Translations under genes and position numbers: made by a program
The notes under the pieces: model-generated
What the model was told of the DNA's origin: nothing
Databases searched by the model: none
Seen by the model: only the letters and a program-made list of their open reading frames with translations
Shown: one piece after another, positions 1,039-48,257 of the stretch
Position numbering within the stretch: position 1 is the first letter of the stretch
Layout of the letters: every line of letters starts with the position of its first letter
From: Candidatus Latescibacterota bacterium
GTDB taxonomy: Bacteria > Latescibacterota > UBA2968 > GCA-2709665
Direction of reading: 5' to 3'
Assembly (NCBI GenBank): GCA_965203805.1
Contig: OZ241917.1
Coordinates: forward strand, 2,560,001-2,624,000
DNA length: 64,000 nucleotides

Positions 1039-3804
1039 GTGACTGACATTGTCCGCACTCCGGAACAAAAGGCACGCGCAAAGATCGATGCGAAGTTGAA
1101 TCAGGCTGGCTGGCAGGTGCAGTCGAAGAACGAGATCGACTTCAGCGCCGGCCTCGGGATCGCCGTGCGTGAGTATCAGACGGATATCGGACCGGCCGAC
1201 TACGTACTATTCGTTGACAGGGAAGCTGTGGGCGTCGTCGAGGCAAAGTCGGAGGAGTGGGGCCACAAGATTACGACCGTCGAAAATCAGTCTGGCGCTT
1301 ATGCTGCTGCCGAGTTGAAATGGGTGAACAATAAAGAACCCCTGCCGTTCGTCTATGAAACGACGGGTGTGTTGACGCGATTCACCAACGGTCGCGACCC
1401 GAAACCCCGGTCCCGCGAGGTCTTCAACTTCCCCCGGCCAGACACGATACGTGAATGGCGCACGCAGAGCGCTTCGCTCCGTGGCCGGTTGCAACGGCTA
1501 CCGGAACTCGACCCTGTAGGTCTCCGTGAGTGCCAGATCGGCGCTATCGAAAAACTGGAATCATCTTTCAAGGATAATCGCCAACGCGCGCTCGTACAGA
1601 TGGCCACAGGCTCGGGCAAGACCTACACAGCAATCACCTCGATCTACCGGTTGCTCAAATACGCAAACGCCAGGCGGATCCTGTTTCTGGTAGATACACG
1701 CCATCTTGGCGAGCAGGCTGAGCAGGAATTCATGGCCTACGTTCCCAGTGACGATAACCGTAAATTCACCGAACTCTATAACGTACAGCGTCTCAAGTCT
1801 TCCTTCGTCGCTCAGGACAGTCAGGTCTGCATCAGCACCATCCAGCGTATGTATTCGCTGCTGAAGGGCGAGGAGATCGACGAAACCGCGGAAGAAATTA
1901 ACCCGGCGGAGTTGGTGCAGCCAGGTCAACCGATGGAGGTCGTCTACAACGAGAAGATTCCGCCTGAGTTTTTCGACTTCATCATCATTGACGAGTGCCA
2001 CCGGTCCATCTACAACCTCTGGCGCCAGGTCCTCGACTACTTCGACGCCTTCCTCATTGGTCTCACTGCCACGCCTGACAACCGCACCTACGGATTCTTC
2101 AAGAAAAACGTCGTCAGCGAATACACTCATGAACAAGCCGTCGCGGACGGCGTCAACGTCGGTAACGAAGTCTACGTAATCGACACTGAACGGACAAAAC
2201 ACGGCGGCCGGATCAAGGCCAATCAGCATGTCGAAAGACGCGAACGCCTCACGCGGCGCAAGCGCTGGGAGATTCAGGACGAGGATCTTGACTATACCAG
2301 ACAAGAACTGGATCGCACCGTTGTCAATCCCGATCAGATCAGAACGGTCGTCCGTACGTTTCGAGACAGTCGGACGGAGATATTTCCTGGCCGCGAAGAG
2401 GTGCCCAAGACACTGATTTTCGCCAAGACGGATAGCCACGCCGACGACATCATCCAGACGGTGAGGGAGGAATTCGACGAAGGCAATGAGTTCTGCAAGA
2501 AAGTCACATACAAATCCGAAGAGGACCCGAAATCCGTCCTCGCCCAATTCCGAAACGGCTATTATCCACGCATTGCTGTCACCGTGGATATGATTGCGAC
2601 GGGTACCGACGTGCGACCACTCGAATGCCTGCTATTCATGCGTGATGTGAGGAGCCGCAATTACTTTGAGCAGATGAAGGGCCGTGGGACACGTATCCTG
2701 GAACAGGACGATCTCAAAAAGGTCTCACCCTCTGCCGTCAGCGGAAAGACTCACTACGTTGTTGTGGACGCCGTCGGCGTCACGAAATCGCTCAAGACCG
2801 CCAGCCAGCCGCTCATCACGAAGCCGTCAGTTCCACTTAAGGATCTTGCAATGGGCGTGATGATGGGCGCCCACGATGAGGATACGGTGGGCTCACTCGC
2901 CGGCCGCCTCGCAAGGCTGAACCAGCAACTCGATTCAAGTGAACTGGAACGTATCCGTGAAAAAGCAGGCGGTATCGACCTTACCAGGATCGTCGGCGAT
3001 TTGGTGGCAGCCATCGACCCCGACCGGATTGACGCGAAGGCCCGCGAAATCGAAGTTGTGCCTGAGCATGCCGATCCGTCATCCCCCGCCCTCTTCCAGG
3101 CGCGGGAAGAGCTGGTACGCAAAGCGGCCAGGGTGTTCAACGGCGAGTTGATTGAACTGATCGACTCGATCCGCCGCGACAAAGAACAGACCATCGACAA
3201 CGAAGGTCTTGATACCGTGCTCCGCGCGGAATGGGAAGGCGACGCGCACAAAAATGCCGAGGCCGTTGCGAAAGACTTCCGGGAGTATCTCGAAGCCAAT
3301 CGCGATGAAATCGAAGCCCTTGCCATCTTCTACGCCGAACCGTACAGACGAAGAGACCTTACATTTGAGATGATCCGCGAGGTTTTGGAAAAGCTCAAAA
3401 CTGATCGGCCTCGACTCGCCCCTTTTCGTGTTTGGCAGGCATACTCCGTGCTCGATGACTACAAGGGCGGGCAACCGGCTAGTGAACTGACCACGCTCGT
3501 GGCTTTGATCCGCCGAGTCTGCGGCTGTGATAGCAAGCTCTCGACCTATTCGGATACGGTGCACCGCAACTTCCAGAATTGGATTATGACACACCACAGC
3601 GGCAGCGGAGAGAAATTCAACGAAGATCAAATGGACTGGTTGCGCATGATCCGTGACCACATCACCACCTCGTTTCATCTGGACCGCGACGATCTGGACA
3701 TGGCTCCATTCGATAGCAAGGGTGGCTTGGGGCAGATGTACAAGCTCTTCGGCGACCGAATGGATGATGTGATTGATGAGTTAAACGAGGCACTGGCGGC
3801 ATGA
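1039..3804 (+). CDS. hsdR: Type I restriction enzyme R subunit (EcoAI/EcoEI-like)
   Basis: Nuclease motif ADYVL..VEAK, Walker A MATGSGKT, DECHR, GLTATP, QMKGRGTR; GTG at 1039 preferred over ORF-track start 952. Confidence 0.95.
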   Translation: MTDIVRTPEQKARAKIDAKLNQAGWQVQSKNEIDFSAGLGIAVREYQTDIGPADYVLFVDREAVGVVEAKSEEWGHKITTVENQSGAYAAAELKWVNNKEPLPFVYETTGVLTRFTNGRDPKPRSREVFNFPRPDTIREWRTQSASLRGRLQRLPELDPVGLRECQIGAIEKLESSFKDNRQRALVQMATGSGKTYTAITSIYRLLKYANARRILFLVDTRHLGEQAEQEFMAYVPSDDNRKFTELYNVQRLKSSFVAQDSQVCISTIQRMYSLLKGEEIDETAEEINPAELVQPGQPMEVVYNEKIPPEFFDFIIIDECHRSIYNLWRQVLDYFDAFLIGLTATPDNRTYGFFKKNVVSEYTHEQAVADGVNVGNEVYVIDTERTKHGGRIKANQHVERRERLTRRKRWEIQDEDLDYTRQELDRTVVNPDQIRTVVRTFRDSRTEIFPGREEVPKTLIFAKTDSHADDIIQTVREEFDEGNEFCKKVTYKSEEDPKSVLAQFRNGYYPRIAVTVDMIATGTDVRPLECLLFMRDVRSRNYFEQMKGRGTRILEQDDLKKVSPSAVSGKTHYVVVDAVGVTKSLKTASQPLITKPSVPLKDLAMGVMMGAHDEDTVGSLAGRLARLNQQLDSSELERIREKAGGIDLTRIVGDLVAAIDPDRIDAKAREIEVVPEHADPSSPALFQAREELVRKAARVFNGELIELIDSIRRDKEQTIDNEGLDTVLRAEWEGDAHKNAEAVAKDFREYLEANRDEIEALAIFYAEPYRRRDLTFEMIREVLEKLKTDRPRLAPFRVWQAYSVLDDYKGGQPASELTTLVALIRRVCGCDSKLSTYSDTVHRNFQNWIMTHHSGSGEKFNEDQMDWLRMIRDHITTSFHLDRDDLDMAPFDSKGGLGQMYKLFGDRMDDVIDELNEALAA

Positions 3805-16792: not shown

Positions 16793-18409
16793 ATGTTTAG
16801 AAGGAGTGCCCCTTCAAGTGCGCCGGATCTGTTTCGCAGTTTTGAGTCTCATCTCACAGGTCGGAAGCGGAACCGGCTCAATGATCCGTTGTGCTGGCAT
16901 AATCTGTTTTACGAGCACATCACGTCAAAGGTGGATGAGGATAACTTCCGTGTGGTGTATGCCGCTGACGTAGGGCGTCCTAATGCGCCGATTCGTCAGT
17001 TGGTGTCGATGATGATCATCAAGGAGGGTTTTGGGTGGAGCGATGCCCACCTTTTCGATCAATGTCGGTTCAACATCCTGGTGATGGGTGCATTGGGATT
17101 GGCGAATCTTACGGATGAAGTGCCTGTCGAGTCCACGTATTATCTGTTCAAGCAGGCGTTGTATTTGTATCAACTGGAGACCGGTCGCGACCTGATCGGC
17201 GAGACCTTTGCCAGCTTAACGAAGACGCAGGCCAAGGCCTTTGGTGTGTTGGGTCAGCAGATTCGAATGGACAGCCTGCCTGCGCCGGATACTCGGCAGG
17301 CAGGTAAGTTGATCGGCTCGAACATTGCGCTTTGTTGTCGGTTGCAGTTGGTGGTGGGTTGCGTACAAGGGTTCTGGAGGTCGTTGGACCAGGCCCAAAA
17401 ACAACGATCATCGGCAGCGGATCAGCAGGTTTTGGAGGCTCTGATCCAGGGGAAGCCTCATCAGGTTGTCTACGGTCTCACCAGTCGTGAAAAAGGCGAG
17501 AAGCTCCAGGAATTGGGGCTGTTATTGAGCAGGCTACAAGCGACCTATACCGAGAAGGACAGCGACCAATACGATCTGATCGTGCGTGTTTTTGGGGACC
17601 ACTATACGGTTTCATCTTCCCCCGAGGAGGTGCTGCCCAAGCCGCATGAAGCGATCTGTTCATCCTCGTTGCAGTCTGCCCATGATGAAGAGGCGGCCTT
17701 TCGCAAGAAAGGGAAGGACAAGGTGAAAGGGTATACGGTCAACCTCACCGAGACCTGTGATGAGGAGGGCCTCAATTTGATCACGGACGTTGACGTCAAA
17801 CCCGCGACGCGTCCCGACAATGCGTTTGTCCAAGGCGCCATACAGAGGACGCAACAGGTGGTGGGCGACGTCGTCGAAGTGTCAATGGATGGGGCCTATA
17901 ATGATCAATCCAACGCCGAGTATGCCGACGAAAACGACAAGCAATTCTTTTACAGTGGCCTGCAAGGAAAGCCAGGGCGTTTCCGTTATGAACGCACAGC
18001 AAAAGGCGTCACCGTCACCGATCAACAAACCGGAGAACTTCACATCGCCCAGGAATACAAACCGGGAAAATACAAAATCATCATCGATGGCAAAGCACGA
18101 TACTTTCAGGAACATCACATCGACACTTACCTCAGACGCAAACAGATGGAAGCCCTGCCTGACCCCATCAGAAAACGACCTGCCTGCGCCGAGTTCGCTG
18201 CCTCGCCTGCTTCAGCAGGCAGGTGCTCGGCAGGCAGGCGCAATAACGTCGAAGCCAGCATCTTCCAGTTGAGCTACTACACCAAAAATGGCAAGACGCG
18301 CTATCGCGGATACAGGCCACACCAACTGTGGGCGCGCTGTCGTGGCCTATGGGTCAACCTCGTTCGGATCCAAAACTACCTCACAACACCCTCGACGCTC
18401 CCCGCATAA
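16793..18409 (+). CDS. DDE transposase carrying two in-frame palindromic inserts
   Basis: GRPNAP, WSDAHLF, IRMDS, SMDGAY, RNNVE motifs. Confidence 0.88.
   Translation: MFRRSAPSSAPDLFRSFESHLTGRKRNRLNDPLCWHNLFYEHITSKVDEDNFRVVYAADVGRPNAPIRQLVSMMIIKEGFGWSDAHLFDQCRFNILVMGALGLANLTDEVPVESTYYLFKQALYLYQLETGRDLIGETFASLTKTQAKAFGVLGQQIRMDSLPAPDTRQAGKLIGSNIALCCRLQLVVGCVQGFWRSLDQAQKQRSSAADQQVLEALIQGKPHQVVYGLTSREKGEKLQELGLLLSRLQATYTEKDSDQYDLIVRVFGDHYTVSSSPEEVLPKPHEAICSSSLQSAHDEEAAFRKKGKDKVKGYTVNLTETCDEEGLNLITDVDVKPATRPDNAFVQGAIQRTQQVVGDVVEVSMDGAYNDQSNAEYADENDKQFFYSGLQGKPGRFRYERTAKGVTVTDQQTGELHIAQEYKPGKYKIIIDGKARYFQEHHIDTYLRRKQMEALPDPIRKRPACAEFAASPASAGRCSAGRRNNVEASIFQLSYYTKNGKTRYRGYRPHQLWARCRGLWVNLVRIQNYLTTPSTLPA
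17275..17304. repeat. 30-nt CCTGCCTG..CAGGCAGG palindromic element, in frame in the transposase
   Basis: Absent from the paralogue near 33050 (GACAG|TAAGTT). Confidence 0.92.
18179..18238. repeat. 60-nt nested palindromic element, in frame in the transposase
   Basis: 59/60 identical to 39399-39458. Confidence 0.92.
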
Positions 18410-37295: not shown

Positions 37296-38756
37296 ATGAA
37301 CGAAAAGAACCTCTCAAACCTGGCCGCCCTTGGCGAAGGCTATACCATCGAGTTCAAGCGCTCGGGCACTTCCGGGCTTGGACGTGAGATATGCGCCTTT
37401 GCCAATGCCACCGGCGGCGTGATCTTGATTGGCGTGACCGACGATGGGGTGGGCTGCGGCGTTGCTGACCACAACCGCTTGAAGTCCAGGGTCCAGTCGA
37501 TCGCCCGCAGCGCGGAGCCGCCCATCGCGGTCGAGATCGAAAGCGTAGAAGGCGTGCTCTGTGTGACCGTGCCCGCGCAGCACAGCAAGCCCTACTCTTT
37601 CGGTGGAAAGTTCTACATCCGCGAAGGGGCGAGCAGTCAGCAAATGTCGCGCGAGGAGATTCGGGAATTCTTTTACAAGGAAGGGCTGATCCATTTCGAC
37701 GAAACCGCGTGCGACAGGTTTTCATTGGAGAAAGACCTTGATGAAGAGAAATGGTCCGTGTTTCAGCGCCGCGCGAAAATTCCCGAGGATATGGATCCGG
37801 AGATCGCGCTTCGCAACCTGCACCTGATGGATGAAGATGGCCGGATGACACACGCCGGGGCTTGGTTGCTGGCCAGAGACATCCGGAAGTTCAATATCAG
37901 CGCGGACGTCGCATGTGCGCTCTTCATGGGAACTGACAAGGTGCGCATTCTCGACAGGCGCGACTTCCACGGCGACGTCTATACGATGATTGAAGAGGTG
38001 ATGGCCTGGATTCTCTCCAAAATCAACATCGAGTACATCATTAAGCACGTAAAGCGGGAAGAACGGCCGGAACTGCCCGAAGAGGCCATTCGCGAGGCGG
38101 TCGTCAACGCATTGGCCCACCGAGACTACCGTTCGACGGCCAATGTACAGATTTACCTGTTCAATGACCGGCTCGAAATCGTCAGCCCTGGCGGGTTGCC
38201 CGCCGGCATGACGGAAGCGGATCTCGGTATCAAGAGCATACCGCGCAATCCGCTGTTGTTCGGCATCCTGCACCGCATGGAGGCGGTCGAGAGGATCGGT
38301 TCAGGCATTCGGAGAATCCGCGACCTGTGCCGTGAACACGGAGTGGCTGAACCGTTGATCGAAGTGGCCGATTCGTGGGTAACGACAATGTTCCAAAGGC
38401 CAACCTCAGAGGTGGAAACCCGCACCGGGCGAAAGCAAGAGTCAGGCAAGAGCCAGGCAAGAGTCGGGCAAGAGCCGGCACCAGGTCGGCACCAGGTCGG
38501 CACTAAGTCGGCACCAAGTCGGCACCAAGTCCAAATCCTGCGTAACTGCCTGTCAGAAAAGGCGATAGGGACGTTAATGGCGTCAGTCAGTAGAAAGGAC
38601 CGAACCAAGTTCAGGAACCAGGTCCTGAAACCCCTGTTGGAAGCCGGATGGCTGGAGATGACCATACCGGACAAGCCGACAAGCAGCAAGCAGAAATACC
38701 GGGTGACAAGCAAGGGGCGACAGCTTTTGGCGGAGTTGGGGGAGAACAATGTCTGA
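37296..38756 (+). CDS. AlbA_2 + HATPase_c_4 (RecG-C-like) + C-terminal wHTH protein
   Basis: GEGYTIEFK, ICAFANATGG, REAVVNALAHRDY, SPGGL, PRNP, PDKPTSSKQKY. Confidence 0.9.
   Translation: MNEKNLSNLAALGEGYTIEFKRSGTSGLGREICAFANATGGVILIGVTDDGVGCGVADHNRLKSRVQSIARSAEPPIAVEIESVEGVLCVTVPAQHSKPYSFGGKFYIREGASSQQMSREEIREFFYKEGLIHFDETACDRFSLEKDLDEEKWSVFQRRAKIPEDMDPEIALRNLHLMDEDGRMTHAGAWLLARDIRKFNISADVACALFMGTDKVRILDRRDFHGDVYTMIEEVMAWILSKINIEYIIKHVKREERPELPEEAIREAVVNALAHRDYRSTANVQIYLFNDRLEIVSPGGLPAGMTEADLGIKSIPRNPLLFGILHRMEAVERIGSGIRRIRDLCREHGVAEPLIEVADSWVTTMFQRPTSEVETRTGRKQESGKSQARVGQEPAPGRHQVGTKSAPSRHQVQILRNCLSEKAIGTLMASVSRKDRTKFRNQVLKPLLEAGWLEMTIPDKPTSSKQKYRVTSKGRQLLAELGENNV
38435..38532 (+). repeat. 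Intragenic ~11-bp tandem repeats (9 units)
   Basis: GCAAGAGYCRG x4, then GCACYARGTCG x5. Confidence 0.9.
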
Positions 38757-38985
38757 AGACAGCGCATGGAATGAAACGCTGGTAGAAAAAACGGTGACCC
38801 ACCACATTGAATTAGACGGGCGGCTTTTTCTGATCGAAAACGTCCCGGCGCGAGTCAACGTCGAGACGGACGAGAAGCACTTCTCACCGGAGACCGTCGA
38901 ACGGTTACAGCAAGTGGTGTGGGAACAATGCCGACCCGTTCGCACTATCGAGACTCAGGTCTATGAATACGCTGCTCTCTCTTGA
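38749..38985 (+). CDS. YgiT/MqsA-like small antitoxin-type protein lacking Cys ligands
   Basis: LIENVPARVNVETDEKHFSPETVERLQ. Confidence 0.75.
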   Translation: MSEDSAWNETLVEKTVTHHIELDGRLFLIENVPARVNVETDEKHFSPETVERLQQVVWEQCRPVRTIETQVYEYAALS

Positions 38986-39044
38986 AGGAACCGCCCGGTT
39001 GTCGGCAACGCATTCTTTGATCGCGGCTTTCGAAAGGAAGGGCC

Positions 39045-39260
39045 ATGAAACTCCATTACTATCCCGAAACCGATAGCCTGTACGTCGAGTTCAAATCCGG
39101 TCCGGGCACTGAAACGCGAGAGGTCGCCAACGGGCTGAACGTCGATCTCGACGCCAACGGAGACGTCGTAGGCTTCGATATCGACGCGGCTTCCAGGCGT
39201 CTTGACCTTTCCACGCTTGAAACGGAGGCGTTGCCGGTACGCGCGTACAAGATGGGCTGA
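39045..39260 (+). CDS. DUF2283 domain protein
   Basis: YYPETDSLYVEF..DLDANGDVVGFDI. Confidence 0.88.
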   Translation: MKLHYYPETDSLYVEFKSGPGTETREVANGLNVDLDANGDVVGFDIDAASRRLDLSTLETEALPVRAYKMG

Positions 39261-39303: not shown

Positions 39304-40776
39304 ATGAAATCTGTTATTGACCTCCGTCCGTACGTCCTCATCTTGACGGGCGTTTTCCTGTGTCTGTCCGCCCTGCCCTGTGATGCGAACCCTGCAGGCC
39401 TGCCTGCGCCGAGTTCTCTGCCTCGCCTGCTTCAGCAGGCAGGTGCTCGGCAGGCAGGCGGACCCCGGTTGACCCTCGAGGCGTGTCTGAGGCAGGCGCT
39501 GGCCAACAACCGGCAACTGGCGGCGGCCGGATTCGCCGCCGAAAAGGCAAACTGGGACCGCCGGAACGCGTGGTCGCAGTTCGCGCCGAGGGTGAGCTTC
39601 AATACGGAGGTGACGCGGATTGACGAACAGACGCTGGCCGAGCGGGACTTTTCCAGGTACTTTCCACCCGAGATCCCCGTACCGCAAGTGGCGTTCCGGA
39701 CCTCGTACTATTCGTCGTTCCAGGCGCACGTCCCCATCTTCGACGCGGAACTGATCAACGGCGTTGCCGTGGCGACCACCGGACAGTCCGCGGCCGAACG
39801 GACTCGAGAGGCCATCCGCGATCAAATCCTCTATCAGGTCACCTTCGGGTACCTGGAAGTGCTGAAACGCCGCGCGACGCTCGAACTTCAGCGGGAATTC
39901 CTCGTCCTGACCGGCCTGAACGTCAAAAAAGCCGAGAGGATGCACCTTGCGGGGAGATATTCGAAGCTGGACCTGCTGCGGTGGCAGGTGGAACACCAGC
40001 AGCAGAAGAGCAGCGTGGCCGCGGGAGAGTCCGCCTTGCGCGATGCAACGGTTCGCTTGCGCCGGCTGCTCAACCTTCGCGCGCTGGAGACGGACGCGCT
40101 GGCGGACGCCGTCCCGGACGTTCTCAACGCGGAGGCCACGCGGCTGGCGAATTTGTCTGAAGGTGACATCCGGCGGCTGGCGGGCGTGGAGAACCGGACG
40201 CTGGTTGAAGGGAACGCAGTACTCGCAGCGGCGGAACGGGACCGGGAACGCAGCCGCCTGGTCTACCGGGGGCAGGTTTCGAGTTACCTGCCCGACGTCT
40301 CTCTCAGCTATTCGACGGCCTGGCGCAGAAACGATACGCCGGCGCTGGACGACTACAGACCCTCTACGGTCATGGTCAATCTGTCGGTTCCCCTGTTTAC
40401 GGGATTCCGAAACCTCTCGCGTCTGAAGTCGGCGCAATTCAGCTATCTGGCGCAGGATTCGCACTTCTCCGATCTGGTGGACGAGACCCGGCAGTCGCTT
40501 GGCGAGACGGTCAACCGGATCGTCAATCTGAAGAACCAGCGCGAACTGATCTCGACCAGCCTTGCGTTCAATGAAAACAACTATCGGATCGTCTCCCGGG
40601 AAAAGACGCTGGGGCGGGCATCGAATCTGGACGTCATCGATGCGAAGCTGAACCTGCAGAACGCCCGGCTGCTGGAGATCACAACGCGATTCGACCTCGC
40701 CTCAACGGCGGTCGAATTTCACTACCTGATGGGCAGCCTCGACGGTCTGGTCGAGGAAATGGCGGAGTCGGAATGA
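39304..40776 (+). CDS. TolC-family outer membrane efflux protein with 20-aa palindrome-derived insert
   Basis: Signal peptide, LTLEACLRQALANN, YLPDVSL, LSVPLFTG; start may be 39292. Confidence 0.9.
   Translation: MKSVIDLRPYVLILTGVFLCLSALPCDANPAGLPAPSSLPRLLQQAGARQAGGPRLTLEACLRQALANNRQLAAAGFAAEKANWDRRNAWSQFAPRVSFNTEVTRIDEQTLAERDFSRYFPPEIPVPQVAFRTSYYSSFQAHVPIFDAELINGVAVATTGQSAAERTREAIRDQILYQVTFGYLEVLKRRATLELQREFLVLTGLNVKKAERMHLAGRYSKLDLLRWQVEHQQQKSSVAAGESALRDATVRLRRLLNLRALETDALADAVPDVLNAEATRLANLSEGDIRRLAGVENRTLVEGNAVLAAAERDRERSRLVYRGQVSSYLPDVSLSYSTAWRRNDTPALDDYRPSTVMVNLSVPLFTGFRNLSRLKSAQFSYLAQDSHFSDLVDETRQSLGETVNRIVNLKNQRELISTSLAFNENNYRIVSREKTLGRASNLDVIDAKLNLQNARLLEITTRFDLASTAVEFHYLMGSLDGLVEEMAESE
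39399..39458. repeat. 60-nt nested palindromic element, in frame in TolC
   Basis: 59/60 identical to 18179-18238. Confidence 0.92.
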
Positions 40777-41882
40777 AACACAGGAACGCAGCAGCGATTG
40801 CCGTGCTCGCGCTGGGCGCCTGCGTGCTGTCGTGCGGGCCGCGGGAGGACACCGAAACGGGCGGGTCGGCCGACCAGGGCGTGGATACGCTCCGGGCGGT
40901 CCCTGTCGAAGCCAGGGTCGTGCGCCGGGAAATCGTGGAGGAGGCGGTCGAAGTCGCGGGCGTCATTCTGCCGCACGGCGCGGTGGACGTGGTCGCCGAG
41001 ACCGGCGGGAGGCTGACGGACGTCAGGGCCGAGGTCGGCGCGCGCGTCACGGCCGGGGACACCCTGGCCGTGATCGACGACCGCGTGGCCCGGAGCCGCC
41101 TGGAACATGCCATCGCGCAGGTCCTTTCCTCGGAAAACAACCTGAATATCGCGCGACTGAATTTCGAGAGCGACCGGCAGCTTCTGGATTCCGGAGACAT
41201 TTCCAGGCTGGCGTTCGAGACGTCCCGGTTTGCCGTCAAGTCCGCGGAAGCCAGGTTGAAATCGAACCAGGCCGAACTGAGTCGCGCGCGCAAAGGGTTC
41301 GAAGACACCCGGCTGACGAGCCCGATCGACGGATGGGTATCCAGAAAGCGCGTGGAGCCCGGAGCGATGATATCCGCCGGCGCGCCGGCCTATCGGGTCG
41401 TCGATCTGACAACCATGAAGATCACGCTCGGAATCCCCCAGACGGCCATCGGCCGCATCCGGACAGGCGGCCCGGTACGCATTACCGTCGCGGCGCTGGG
41501 TCGCCGGGGGTTCGATGGTACCGTCCGCTATATCTCCCCGCAAGCCGAAGAGGAAACCGGAGCGTTTCCCGTCGAAGTCCACGTGGCCAACACGTCCGAT
41601 ACGTCGATCCGCGGGGGGATGTCGGCCCGCTGCCGTGTGATGCTGGGCGGATCGAGTCCTCAGTTCGTCGTTCCCGGCAACACGGTCCTCGCGCGAAACG
41701 GCAGGGAGCATGTCTATCGGATCCGGAAAGGCATTGCGCGCCTCACCGAGGTAACGACCCGCGAAACGTTCGGTTCGCGGGTTTCCGTGGAAACCGGGCT
41801 CGCGGAGGGAGACACGATCGTCGTCGGGGGCATGCTGCGTCTGGGCGTGGAAACCCCCGTGACGATTCGCGCCTTTCGATGA
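40773..41882 (+). CDS. RND efflux periplasmic adaptor (lipoprotein)
   Basis: Lipobox VLSC; lipoyl-like GARVTAGD and SPIDG; GLAEGD. Confidence 0.92.
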   Translation: MKHRNAAAIAVLALGACVLSCGPREDTETGGSADQGVDTLRAVPVEARVVRREIVEEAVEVAGVILPHGAVDVVAETGGRLTDVRAEVGARVTAGDTLAVIDDRVARSRLEHAIAQVLSSENNLNIARLNFESDRQLLDSGDISRLAFETSRFAVKSAEARLKSNQAELSRARKGFEDTRLTSPIDGWVSRKRVEPGAMISAGAPAYRVVDLTTMKITLGIPQTAIGRIRTGGPVRITVAALGRRGFDGTVRYISPQAEEETGAFPVEVHVANTSDTSIRGGMSARCRVMLGGSSPQFVVPGNTVLARNGREHVYRIRKGIARLTEVTTRETFGSRVSVETGLAEGDTIVVGGMLRLGVETPVTIRAFR

Positions 41883-41927: not shown

Positions 41928-44900
41928 ATGTCGATCGTGAAATTCTCGGTTCGAAACCCGGTATTGGTGAACCTGGTCATGGTGGGCCTGCTCTGCTTCG
42001 GCGGCATCAGTCTCTTCAGCATGCCGCAGGAGATGAACCCGCAGATCGACTTCAACTGGGTGACTGTCTCGATCCCGTACCCGGGCGCGAGCCCTGAAGA
42101 GGTGGAGAGCCTGATCGTCGTCCCCATCGAAGCGGAAATCCACGACCTGAACAAAATCGACGAGTTGCAGTCCACGGCAGACGCTGGCCTGGCCCTGTTC
42201 CTCGTCAAGTTCGAAGACATGTCGGAGTCCGAATTCAGGGAGGTCTACACGGACCTCAAGGGGCGCATCGACCGGGTAGAGCTCCCGGATGCGGCAGAGG
42301 ACCCTGAGGTGGACGACTTCGACAGCGGCGATTTCCTGCCCGTACTCACGGTCAACATGGCATTCACGATCCCGGAGGAAAATGCCCAGATCGTCGCCGA
42401 CGATCTCGAGGATGACCTGAAAGACATATCCGGCGTGGCCAGGGTGCAGGTTGCGGGCCTCCCCGAACGGGAAATCTGGGTCGAAGTCGATCCCTCCCGG
42501 CTGGCTGCACGCGGCCTGACGGTCCTGGACGTCGTCCGGGCGATGCAGGCGAGAAACCTGAACGTATCCGGAGGCACCCTCACCTACCGCGCGAAGGAGT
42601 ACGCCATCCGGTCCCTGGCGGAATTCCGGAGCGTGGAGGAGATTCGCGAGACAATCGTCCGGACGGCTCCCCGCGGGGAGACCGTCAGAGTCAGGGACGT
42701 CGCCAGGGTCCGGGACCGACGTGAAGAACCCCAGGTCCTCTCCAGGCTGAACGGCAAGCCGTCCATCACGTTCTCTCTATCGAAGAAAACCGACGCGAAT
42801 ACGAACGACATGATCCTGGCCGTCAAGGAGACGATCCGCAGGTACGAGGAACGCGTACCGGACGGTATCGGCTTTACCTTTACGGACGACAATTCCGTCT
42901 ACATCAACCGGGTGATCGCGGCGCTACGGAACAACGCGGTCACGGGCATGGTGCTCATTTCACTCGTGCTCTGGCTTTTCCTGGGCTCCTGGAACGCCTT
43001 TCTCGCGACGATCGGGATACCCATTTCATTCTTCATCACCTTCATTCTGCTGGGCATTTTCGGATATACCATAAACGGGAGCACGCTGTTCGCGATGGTG
43101 ATGGTACTGGGCATCATTGTGGATGACGCCATCATCGTGATCGAGAACTGCCACCGCTACCGGCTGCAGGGCCACGGCGCCGGCGAGGCCGCCGTCCTGG
43201 GCGCGGGCGAAGTGACAACGCCGATTATCAGTTCCGTAGGCACCAACATTGCCGCCTTCCTTCCCTTGATCCTTCTTCCGGGCGTGATGGGGAAGTTCAT
43301 GCGGATCATCCCGTTGACCTTCGCGCTGGCGCTGGCCGCCTCCGTGTTCGAGGCCTTCGTCCTCCTGCCTTCGCACTACGCCGAATGGACCCGGCGGTCC
43401 AACGCCCACAAAAGAGGCGAACAGCCGTTTTTCAGGAGACTCCGCAGAATCTACGGTCGAATGCTGGTCCGCACGCTGCGGCGGCGCTACTGGGTGATCG
43501 GCGCCCTGGTCGGCGTCCTCATCGGCGCCTTGATGATCCTCGGCCGGCTCCCCATCGACATCTATGCCGACGATGAACTGGACGCGTTCAAGGTGCTCAT
43601 CAAATTCCCCGAAGGAACCAGCCTGCACGAGTCGGATCGCGTCACCCGCGCCTACGAGGCCGAGGCCCTCCGGCTTTCCGAAGCGGACGTCGAAGGCGTC
43701 GTCGTGAACGTCGGTCTCCTGCAGAGCAACAACGAGTGGCTGACGCGGAAGAGCGTCTCACAGGTCCTCGTACAGCTCAAGCCCAAAGAGAAACGCGCAA
43801 GAATGTCGGACGAACTGATGGAAATGCTCCGGGAGCGCACGGAGCACATCGAGGGACCCGCTTCGGTCAGCTTCGAGCTGTTCGCCGGAGGGCCGCCCGA
43901 AGGCAAACCGATCTCCGTGAAGGTTCAGGGTCGCTATCTCGACCGGATGAAGGAAGCCGCGCTTGTGCTTCAGGACTCGCTGCGCCGGATCCCCGGCACG
44001 CTGGAAGTGACAGACGACTTCCCGCCCGGCAAGGAGACGATCCGGATCGAAGTGGATGAAGTCAGAGCGGCGCTGTACGGTTTCTCGGCGCAGGACGTGG
44101 CCCTGAACGTCCGGTACGCGTTCGACGGGGTCAGGGCCACGACGTTCAGGGATGGAGACGAAGAGGTGGGCGTCATCGTACAGTACGACAGAGCAAACCG
44201 GTCGACCGTGGAAGACGTGCTGAACGTACAGGTGACGAACGCAAGCGGGCTTACGGTCGCGCTGCGGGACATGGTCTCGTTCTCAATCGGCCCGGGACGC
44301 ACGAAGATCAAGCGCTTCGACCGGAATCGGACCATCATCGTCACCGGCGAGATCGACGAAGCCGTATTGACATTGGATCAGATCAACAACAGAATGCTCG
44401 AGATCTTTCCGTCGATCGAAGCGCAGTATTCCGACGTGAGCTTTCATATCGGCGGGGAGTTTACGGATTTCCTGGAAGCGTTCGACAACGTCGCGGCGCT
44501 GTTCGTCGTCAGCCTGATTCTGATGTTTCTGATCCTTGGAACCCAGTTCAATTCCTACGCTCAACCCCTGGTGATCCTGACTTCCGTACCCTTCGCGATC
44601 ATCGGCGCGCTGCTCGGTCTGTTGATTTCGGGCAACCCCTTCAGTCTGATTTCGATATTCGGCTTCGTCGCCCTGGCGGGAATCGTCGTCAACGACGCCA
44701 TTGTGATGGTGGCTTTCATGAACAGACGGCGACGTCCCGGCGGGTCCGTGACGAACGTCTGGCGGAGCATCGTGAACGCGGGGCGGTTGCGGCTGCGGCC
44801 GATCATCCTCACTTCGGTGACCACGATATCCGGCCTGATGCCGATGGCCATCGGCATCGGCGGAAAGTCGGCCCTCTGGTCGCCGCTGGCGAACGTCATC

Positions 44901-45017
44901 CTTTTCGGCATGCTCGTGTCCACCGTGCTGACGTTATTCGTGATACCCTGCTTCATGGCTGTCCTGGACGATATCAAACGCGTGCGAAAAAAGGCGCGGT
45001 TGCGACCTGCTGCATAA
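41928..45017 (+). CDS. RND efflux permease (AcrB/CzcA-like)
   Basis: YPGASPEEVE, GIIVDDAI, GIVVNDAI, RLRPIILT; 1029 aa. Confidence 0.95.
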   Translation: MSIVKFSVRNPVLVNLVMVGLLCFGGISLFSMPQEMNPQIDFNWVTVSIPYPGASPEEVESLIVVPIEAEIHDLNKIDELQSTADAGLALFLVKFEDMSESEFREVYTDLKGRIDRVELPDAAEDPEVDDFDSGDFLPVLTVNMAFTIPEENAQIVADDLEDDLKDISGVARVQVAGLPEREIWVEVDPSRLAARGLTVLDVVRAMQARNLNVSGGTLTYRAKEYAIRSLAEFRSVEEIRETIVRTAPRGETVRVRDVARVRDRREEPQVLSRLNGKPSITFSLSKKTDANTNDMILAVKETIRRYEERVPDGIGFTFTDDNSVYINRVIAALRNNAVTGMVLISLVLWLFLGSWNAFLATIGIPISFFITFILLGIFGYTINGSTLFAMVMVLGIIVDDAIIVIENCHRYRLQGHGAGEAAVLGAGEVTTPIISSVGTNIAAFLPLILLPGVMGKFMRIIPLTFALALAASVFEAFVLLPSHYAEWTRRSNAHKRGEQPFFRRLRRIYGRMLVRTLRRRYWVIGALVGVLIGALMILGRLPIDIYADDELDAFKVLIKFPEGTSLHESDRVTRAYEAEALRLSEADVEGVVVNVGLLQSNNEWLTRKSVSQVLVQLKPKEKRARMSDELMEMLRERTEHIEGPASVSFELFAGGPPEGKPISVKVQGRYLDRMKEAALVLQDSLRRIPGTLEVTDDFPPGKETIRIEVDEVRAALYGFSAQDVALNVRYAFDGVRATTFRDGDEEVGVIVQYDRANRSTVEDVLNVQVTNASGLTVALRDMVSFSIGPGRTKIKRFDRNRTIIVTGEIDEAVLTLDQINNRMLEIFPSIEAQYSDVSFHIGGEFTDFLEAFDNVAALFVVSLILMFLILGTQFNSYAQPLVILTSVPFAIIGALLGLLISGNPFSLISIFGFVALAGIVVNDAIVMVAFMNRRRRPGGSVTNVWRSIVNAGRLRLRPIILTSVTTISGLMPMAIGIGGKSALWSPLANVILFGMLVSTVLTLFVIPCFMAVLDDIKRVRKKARLRPAA

Positions 45018-47708: not shown

Positions 47709-47914
47709 TTCAGACTCAAAAGTGCCTCGCCATTCGGCCGACGACTTATCCCGTCGCTGGGTGTTGCTTGCGCTGCTTGCACTGAGCTTGCCGAAGCGGC
47801 TTGTCGAAGTGCCATCGCTGGACGACGTTGCTCAGGTCGCTTGTTGTCGGTCACAACCCCCTTTGGAACTAACCTCTTGGGGGACAAAGGCTTTATCTCT
47901 TCCACCAACTCTCA

Positions 47915-48033
47915 TTTTCTCTTCGTCCTTTTTCTTGTACGCCCAAGAAAAAGGACCAAAAAGAACGGCGCCTGCCTGCCGAGCAGGCTTCGGCCTGTCT
48001 GCCGTTCCAACGGGACAGGCAGGCGCAGGCAGG
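47915..48033. repeat. Hairpin repeat plus 63-nt nested CCTGCCTG element (47971-48033)
   Basis: Outer 33 nt, inner 30 nt (47994-48023). Confidence 0.85.
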
Positions 48034-48257
48034 CCGCTCGGCGCGGGGCCGGTTTTTCCGTGAACCACCTCAGTGGCGCAATTGGAATTTGGTTGCCCTT
48101 TCACCGAAACCGCCCATCCCGAACGATGTTGCTGGACGGAATAGCACGGAAAAACCCCTCCCTTCACCACCGTGCGGAGCGTAGGTCGTCCGGGGAGTTC
48201 ATCCTGGTGGATTCGCGTGGATCCGCCGATTGTATTTTGCTGTATGTTTTTCGGTCA

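Follow-up and report, generated by a model that had tools for sequence, protein, structure and literature searches.

How can the same 60 nucleotides (nt) come to lie, in almost identical form, inside two different genes of one bacterium and leave both of them open? The question is raised by a 64,000-nt stretch of contig OZ241917.1 (positions 2,560,001 to 2,624,000; hereafter the window, with coordinates counted from its first letter) from a Candidatus Latescibacterota of a sponge-associated lineage, whose genome (G000) is a single contig of 5,865,457 bases with 59% G+C. One copy of the 60-nt composite (site B, 39399-39458) lies in the gene for a TolC-like outer-membrane factor at the head of an efflux operon. 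The other (site A, 18179-18238) lies in the transposase gene of an insertion sequence (IS), at a position that we call IS site 2. The two have the same orientation and are 21,220 nt apart; all window features given below are on the forward strand. We propose that the 60 nt are probably a non-autonomous miniature palindromic element of the REP-like (repetitive extragenic palindromic) kind, which was inserted precisely into the intact efflux gene and moved by a trans-acting enzyme.

To follow this element, hairpins and candidate transposase genes were compared across 41 related genomes, and the efflux gene with 14 orthologues from the same genus. Read evidence was taken from Logan contigs of four sequencing runs (X1 to X4), of which X1 and X2 possibly represent the source sample and X4 belongs to a separate study; the stretch occurs in runs from sponge and marine metagenomes.

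A nested composite in two genes

The two copies align without gaps at 59 of 60 positions (61 of 62 when the next two bases, CG, are included), with T39417 against G18197 as the sole mismatch, and their flanks are unrelated and do not align, as the original prediction had stated. A search of the window allowing up to three mismatches recovers the composite at these two places only (expected number 0.00 from 100 shuffles), and BLAST over the whole 5.87-Mb genome likewise returns just these two full copies. Architecturally, the composite is a 27-nt hairpin set within the loop of a 33-nt hairpin, with a predicted folding energy of -46.3 kcal/mol (z -2.7) that 2 of 200 shuffles equal. In the efflux-gene copy the left arm and first loop bases of the outer hairpin (CCTGCCTGCGCCGAGTTC, 39399-39416) match the solo 33-mer CCTGCCTGCGCCGAGTTCTGCTCGGCAGGCAGG; the inner 27-nt hairpin follows (39417-39443), its first base being variable (T here, G at 18197, and C, T or G at this junction in related copies); and the last loop bases and right arm of the outer hairpin (TGCTCGGCAGGCAGG, 39444-39458), again matching the solo 33-mer, complete the unit. 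The nesting that had been claimed is confirmed by the independent occurrence of both parts. The outer unit, CCTGCCTGC-GC-CGAG-TTCTG-CTCG-GCAGGCAGG, stands alone elsewhere in four exact copies (five counting both strands), and the inner 27-mer is found alone at five other sites in the genome (four exact 27/27 and one 26/26), all of them inside one other repeat, at ATCCTG^TCCATCCATG. The further claim that the unit is open in more than one frame is also true, five of its six frames being stop-free, though this comes cheaply because the DNA is so G+C-rich.

In the IS-site-2 copy the reading frame is shifted by one, giving PACAEFAASPASAGRCSAGR within a 538-aa IS1182/IS5-like transposase open reading frame (ORF; 16793-18409; Pfam DUF772; NCBIfam IS1182 at 79 bits, below its cut-off) that contains two in-frame hairpin insertions. 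In the nine other genome copies of this IS, ATCAGAAA[AC]CGA is directly followed by CGCAATAACG, and the window copy is the only one with 60 nt between them. The nine empty paralogues (...AAACCGA|CGCAATAAC) reveal no target duplication, and leave the boundary ambiguous by one C. The other insertion in the same gene, at IS site 1, is a 30-nt solo hairpin of the outer type (17275-17304), which has a 33-nt counterpart in the IS copy at 1518773. These are the two filled copies of that site in G000, both with the outer hairpin alone; seven full and one partial IS copies are empty there. The host ORFs remain open throughout, although the outer-membrane-factor gene has taken up 60 nt and the transposase gene two inserts, one of 30 nt and one of 60 nt. 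The IS-site-2 composite recurs in decayed form in two relatives (G007 and G008), where remnants of the IS lie a short way upstream of the efflux gene. These remnants (L005 ~1284-1443 and L014 ~2962-3121) end about 55 nt before the orthologous efflux start codon and, at the same junction within the IS, keep the composite's first ~31 bases.

The efflux-gene insertion in relatives and in the field

The composite in the efflux gene is an insertion, and it is polymorphic in natural populations. The 20 residues that it encodes are missing from 13 of the 14 same-genus orthologues, and hence are not an ancestral peptide. The closest orthologue (G012, 97% amino-acid identity) is empty, reading CCTGCAGA|CGGACC, and the BLAST alignment of the window with that genome breaks exactly at the insert. 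The insertion point falls between the A and C of GACG, again with no target duplication; the base preceding the insert is G in G000 and A in the empty alleles, which changes an Asp to a Gly. In G007 the same A and C are separated by a different 30-nt member of this hairpin family, oppositely oriented (GCGGA|...|CGGATC), which marks an independent strike at the same nucleotide in a second species. Comparison of 20 kb of synteny with G012, G001 and G003 gave this single indel of the family in the aligned part, and therefore no further empty sites.

The metagenomic reads agree with the assembly and also provide the empty form. In runs X1 and X2 both junctions of the efflux copy are bridged with no differences, and an 8785-nt contig of run X4 spans the whole 601-nt stretch in filled form, with 29 differences and no gaps. 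This contig shares 11 of 28 position-listed differences with G012 and represents a third lineage, about 5% diverged. It shows no difference across 39391-39497, i.e. the insert with some 20-40 nt on each side, a segment more conserved than its flanks; recombination, a second strike at a hot spot or a contig artefact could account for this identity. Run X3 contains both alleles: one contig of 164 nt has the insert (6 differences, depth 11.6), and another is empty (depth 5.2, shorter side 38 nt), joining 39393 to 39454 and skipping exactly 60 nt. The joint is ambiguous by 6 nt because GCAGGC stands at both ends of the insert (39394-39399 and 39454-39459). We take the skipping contig to represent a close strain of the same sample that has the empty allele, and not to prove excision, since joints at a likeness below 95 may stem from other organisms. 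Its empty form reads GCAGGC, where G012 has GCAGAC. Scans of metagenome contigs for the composite itself (one exact with one N, one degenerate) found none. In the RNA runs X21 and X22 only 5% of the words sampled were present.

With respect to the protein, the insert adds 20 residues in the context ...CDANPAG-LPAPSSLPRLLQQAGARQAG-GPRLTLE, and its removal restores NPAG followed by GPRLTLE as had been claimed. The peptide begins about four residues past a putative signal-peptidase site (...LPCDA|NPAG, assigned by eye rather than by a predictor) and lies upstream of the first conserved helix, RLTLEACLRQAL. The mature N-terminus of the filled allele would be expected to yield the tryptic peptides NPAGLPAPSSLPR, LLQQAGAR and QAGGPR. 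The gene (ORF start at 39202 or 39304, end at 40776; 490 aa from the ATG at 39304) is intact and under purifying selection: with the insert removed, comparison with G012 gives a dN/dS of 0.13 at a dS of 0.11. Its product passes the Pfam OEP cut-off by a wide margin (162 bits against 22, E 1.8e-47) and misses that of the NCBIfam TolC family TIGR01844 (100 bits against 225.15), so that it is an OEP-family, TolC-like factor of an RND (resistance-nodulation-division) operon, and the label TolC that it had been given holds in this broader sense only. Similarly, the proposal that a peptide was added to a working envelope protein stands as far as the intact ORF and its selection go; the altered protein, if made, may be functional on these grounds.

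The CCTG hairpin family

The outer and inner units belong to a large family of short palindromes, which we refer to as CCTG hairpins. A strict regular expression built on the pattern CCTGCCTG...CAGGCAGG finds 189 of them in G000 and a looser one 234, and the family is thus taken to comprise at least 234 copies. Their lengths peak at 33, 31, 27 and 19 nt, with many nested forms of 58-88 nt, and they are unevenly distributed, 63 of the 234 falling between 3.0 and 3.5 Mb. By a crude home-made ORF scoring, 36 of 234 (~15%) lie in likely ORFs, as against 69% of random 33-mers; therefore, the family is mainly extragenic. Many copies are located inside other repeats, in the loops of other hairpins, or inside or beside IS elements. 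In 93 inspected elements the ends match CCTGCCTG... and ...GGCAGG, which is the search pattern itself (up to two mismatches per arm), and the flanks are variable. The stem columns covary: across 20 distinct 33-mers, columns 12 and 24 pair in every case, as C-G (13) or A-T (7), and the stem cells of the 33-nt class pair in 62 of 80 cases versus 11-29 of 80 with shifted partners. Among the related genomes the number of CCTG hairpins ranges from 0 to 107.

Four sites have a known empty form (IS site 1, IS site 2, and the efflux gene in G000 and in G007). None of them has a target duplication, and three share the target GA^CG. The left-flank tetranucleotides CGGA, CAGA, ACGA and ACAG show no conservation. 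The family has two of the hallmarks of REPs, namely a short imperfect palindrome (27 or 33 nt) and a high-copy, dispersed, extragenic distribution. It lacks the GTAG or CGTC end tag of the super-families of Di Nocera and colleagues, the GACG seen at three of the four sites, which reads CGTC on the opposite strand, being target and not part of the element. A scan of the whole window with Rfam gathering thresholds returned no match. Several CCTG hairpins have also landed repeatedly at the same point of one motif, ATCCTGTCCATCCATG, of which the genome has about 46 copies.

The composite, a 33-nt hairpin (CCTGCCTGC-GC-stem-loop-stem-GCAGGCAGG) bearing in its loop a 27-nt hairpin of the same superfamily, was inserted precisely at GA^CG without target duplication, about four codons past the predicted cleavage site. 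It would have been tolerated there because it amounts to 20 codons, is open in five of six frames and falls in what is probably a variable N-terminal tail ahead of the first conserved helix. Its movement would be the work of a hairpin-specific enzyme acting in trans by single-strand cutting and joining; the precise ends, the lack of duplication, the nesting in loops and the structural covariation would all fit an enzyme that reads single-stranded hairpins.

Whole-unit movement or re-nesting

The original prediction held that the nested unit had moved as one entity, a reading about as likely as re-nesting in place. A 119-nt contig of run X3 carries the composite, with two differences, between ...GCATGGACA and TAAGTTGATCGGCTCGAACA, i.e. 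at IS site 1, where the filled copies of G000 (30 and 33 nt) have the outer hairpin alone; therefore, on one occasion or more an inner hairpin has come into, or gone out of, an outer hairpin already in place. For the composite, we put transport of the entire unit and its reconstruction by an inner hairpin entering the outer loop anew at about even odds. Under the second scenario, which we regard as only slightly short of an even chance, the outer 33-mer landed first at each site and the 27-nt inner hairpin followed at TTC^TG, with a preference for that loop. Apart from IS site 1, this scenario draws on a different 30-nt inner hairpin that has the same place in the loop of at least three subfamilies of outer hairpin (the 63-, 66- and 71-nt forms), and on the existence of solo outers with this very loop variant. 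Set against it are the otherwise exclusive residence of the 27-nt inner hairpin in ATCCTG^TCCATCC, which is unlike the loop, and the fact that the genus shows the same nested architecture in four settings: at IS site 2, in the efflux gene, at IS site 1 of X3 and, decayed, at G008:C1:3690480. The base that distinguishes the copies at sites A and B also varies (C, T, G) among orthologous IS-site-2 copies, and is therefore uninformative on this point.

Competing explanations

Other origins for the efflux-gene copy have to be set beside a mobile REP-like element. The copy might have been made ectopically from the IS copy 21 kb away, by gene conversion or by a template switch over short homologous stretches, given the shared orientation and spacing of the two, the GCAGGC at both ends of the efflux-gene copy, and the presence of GCCCTGCC in both left flanks, about 27-30 nt upstream. 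We consider this improbable: the junction repeat at the IS site is at most 1 nt, the composite begins and ends on exactly the same base in both places, the same termini recur in unrelated flanks in hundreds of family members, and a different member struck the same nucleotide in G007. Still less likely is a miniature transposable element with inverted repeats (a MITE), driven by a DDE transposase and reduced to two fused terminal inverted repeats. The palindromic ends and the many copies inside or beside IS elements would suit such an origin, and the target-site duplication that defines MITEs is absent from all four sites with a known empty form. Moreover, no IS with CCTGCCTG-type ends was seen, unpaired CCTGCCTG occurrences being almost all unique and near the chance number, though no search dedicated to IS termini was made. 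Hardly credible, finally, is an ancestral peptide lost in relatives, or an insert that is an assembly artefact. The GCAGGC repeat could drive precise deletion, and the X3 empty form indeed has GCAGGC and not the GCAGAC of G012; yet 13 of the 14 orthologues are without the peptide, the same 60 nt stand in an IS, and the junctions are present in contigs from runs of two studies.

A REP-like insertion accommodates these observations best, and several results nevertheless weigh against parts of it. The target is not strict, for IS site 1 was entered at ACA(G)^TAAG and not at GACG. Recency, which the original prediction had asserted, is disfavored by the filled contig of X4, with its ~5% diverged flanks, and by the occurrence of the IS-borne copy, in decayed form, in IS remnants of two other species. 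The AlphaFold2 model of the outer-membrane factor (18-row alignment, mean pLDDT 45) is too poor to place the peptide. The remaining objections concern the enzyme.

Candidate engines

The genome encodes one free-standing Y1 transposase gene, a 201-aa RAYT (REP-associated tyrosine transposase) at C1:4533512-4534117, which scores 104 bits against NF047646 (cut-off 80) and matches PDB 4er8 (E 3.7e-6). It is the best, if a weak, candidate for moving CCTG hairpins in trans, and we advance it tentatively, as a possibility that is more doubtful than not. In its favor, the six genomes among the 41 that have a RAYT orthologue contain 100, 102, 17, 63, 10 and 84 CCTG hairpins, most others having no more than 8. 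This association is not an independent one because the genomes compared are kin, and two genomes with no RAYT orthologue have 107 (G015) and 30 (G007, a draft) hairpins. Furthermore, the flanks of the RAYT gene carry a different hairpin, GAGGGCA..TGCCCTC (29 copies in the genome, 9 of them within 1.2 kb). The orthologous loci hold the GAGGGCA hairpin and have a CCTG hairpin in none of five cases, and the CCTG hairpin beside the RAYT of G000, an exact outer 33-mer 7 nt past the stop codon, seems decisive at first sight and is not, being itself an insertion with an empty site in G001. Thus, CCTG hairpins do not flank a cognate single-copy RAYT as the repeats of a REPtron or REPIN-RAYT system do. 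Replication-strand bias was also not found among the asymmetric 33-mers, which divide 23:15 and 9:8 over replichores defined by a weak GC-skew signal and with unequal arms.

The alternative that CCTG hairpins are currently active mobile DNAs of 27-33 nt, among the smallest known, with precise, duplication-free insertion and excision at GA^CG and in loops by an enzyme other than the RAYT beside its own separate repeats, strikes us as unlikely. If it were true, nested composites would be new replicative units, and the family would naturally supply the envelope proteins of sponge-associated bacteria with short peptide insertions. Two other engines were examined and set aside, as their occurrence does not track hairpin counts. 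An IS110-family gene occurs once in the genome and has relatives in G017 and G025 (both with 0 hairpins), and was not found in the hairpin-rich G011, G015 and G016; a single reverse-transcriptase gene is shared only with G016. A search of the genome for a TnpB-type domain found none.

Several observations on these loci stand apart from the CCTG hairpins. The region G000:C1:4532764-4534675 is a classic REPtron, in which the RAYT is accompanied on both sides by nine GAGGGCA(3-4 nt)TGCCCTC hairpins, one of them after GTAG, and the same arrangement of RAYT and GAGGGCA hairpins is seen in five related genomes. From G000:C1:4546978 onward, a Y1 domain of RAYT type, 47% identical to the free-standing enzyme, is encoded in frame within a 1252-aa DUF1156/D12-methylase-like ORF, a fusion that recurs in G008, G011 (twice) and G016. 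The IS110 element (G000:C1:4837400-4839700) has CCTG hairpins of 33 and 36 nt in its 3' non-coding end, and about ten gene-less, MITE-like derivatives with its left and right ends joined are scattered in the genome, one at window 47833-48239. The 522-aa reverse-transcriptase ORF (G000:C1:1678996-1680561) is 96% identical to one at G016:C1:679236-680801, in another genus, with none in the other members of the 41-genome set, which suggests a recent horizontal transfer.

Relationship to known repeat systems

Single-strand transposition of the IS200/IS605 'peel and paste' type combines hairpin ends, absence of target duplication, and precise insertion and excision. The nesting of CCTG hairpins in loops would fit such a single-strand mechanism, though it is no documented trait of IS200/IS605. 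Unlike IS200/IS605 elements, the CCTG family has no conserved left-flank tetranucleotide and no detected strand bias, and its members are far smaller than any palindrome-associated transposable element (PATE). Elhai and colleagues, in 2008, reportedly described dispersed repeats of 21-27 nt in heterocystous cyanobacteria that were nested in their own copies and in further repeats and recently mobile, that kept their fold through compensatory changes, and whose engine was unknown; those small repeats belong to another phylum and are unrelated in sequence to CCTG hairpins.

The closest likeness is to the REPs and REPINs that RAYTs mobilise (Di Nocera et al. 2013, PMC3733652; Bertels and Rainey 2011, PMC3116915), which are GC-rich imperfect palindromes of 20-40 nt, present in hundreds of copies, mostly extragenic and divided into subfamilies. 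The CCTG family differs from REPs in lacking the GTAG or CGTC end tag, from RAYT-REPs in that the RAYT of the genome is flanked by another hairpin family, and from REPINs in that these are inverted doublets and the composite is a hairpin nested in a loop. For want of the tag and of RAYT flanking, it is therefore not filed as a RAYT-REP; it works like the RAYT-REPs, and adds one more member to the broad REP-like kind. Precedents for much of its behavior exist. Di Nocera et al. 2013 (PMC3733652) describe intragenic REPs by which proteins gain 20-30 residues, two Xanthomonas species whose recB genes carry different REPs at roughly one position, REPs lodged within other palindromes, and one REP super-family with no dedicated transposase; Bertels and Rainey 2011 (PMC3116915) report REPIN excision in population reads. 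Intragenic REP-like repeats are thus already in print. Rickettsia palindromic elements, according to the summary of Ogata et al. 2000 in PMC10969869, are likewise selfish palindromic DNA whose in-frame insertion leaves the host genes open and probably functional; they measure ~100-150 bp and are frequent in genes, as opposed to the 27-60 nt of CCTG units and their ~15% presence in likely ORFs. No earlier description of such repeats in Latescibacterota appears among the titles and abstract openings covered.

Within this framework, the locus offers a clean and datable case of a 60-nt selfish hairpin that entered a conserved efflux gene of an uncultured phylum and did not break it, and paralogues, orthologues and field metagenomes supply both filled and empty alleles. 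A second species was struck at the same nucleotide in an independent event, which makes it possible to test how such elements choose their targets, and CCTG hairpins are very small substrates with which to study how REP-like repeats move, a matter still unsettled. There is also a warning for annotation, in that short low-complexity protein inserts in these genomes may be repeat-derived.

Neighboring genes and other repeats

The efflux gene is followed in its operon by genes for a membrane-fusion protein (40773-41882; Pfam HlyD_D23 and HlyD_3) and a 1029-aa RND transporter of the AcrB family (41928-45017; Pfam ACR_tran, 4.4e-206). Upstream of the operon, window 37296-39260 encodes a 486-aa Schlafen AlbA_2/HATPase_c_4/Fic-like_C protein, together with a 78-aa ORF of no family and a DUF2283 protein. 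The genome also contains about 64 copies of a 37-nt CRISPR-like repeat, GTTTCAATCCTTGTTCTGATGGAAGATTCTCTCTGAG. Mini-palindromes absent from G000 are found in relatives at positions equivalent to the vicinity of window 38831 and 26342: G012 has the 21-nt GACTCCCCCTCAAGGGGGGAG, and both G012 and G001 have a 45-nt palindrome; therefore, several hairpin families are polymorphic in the genus.

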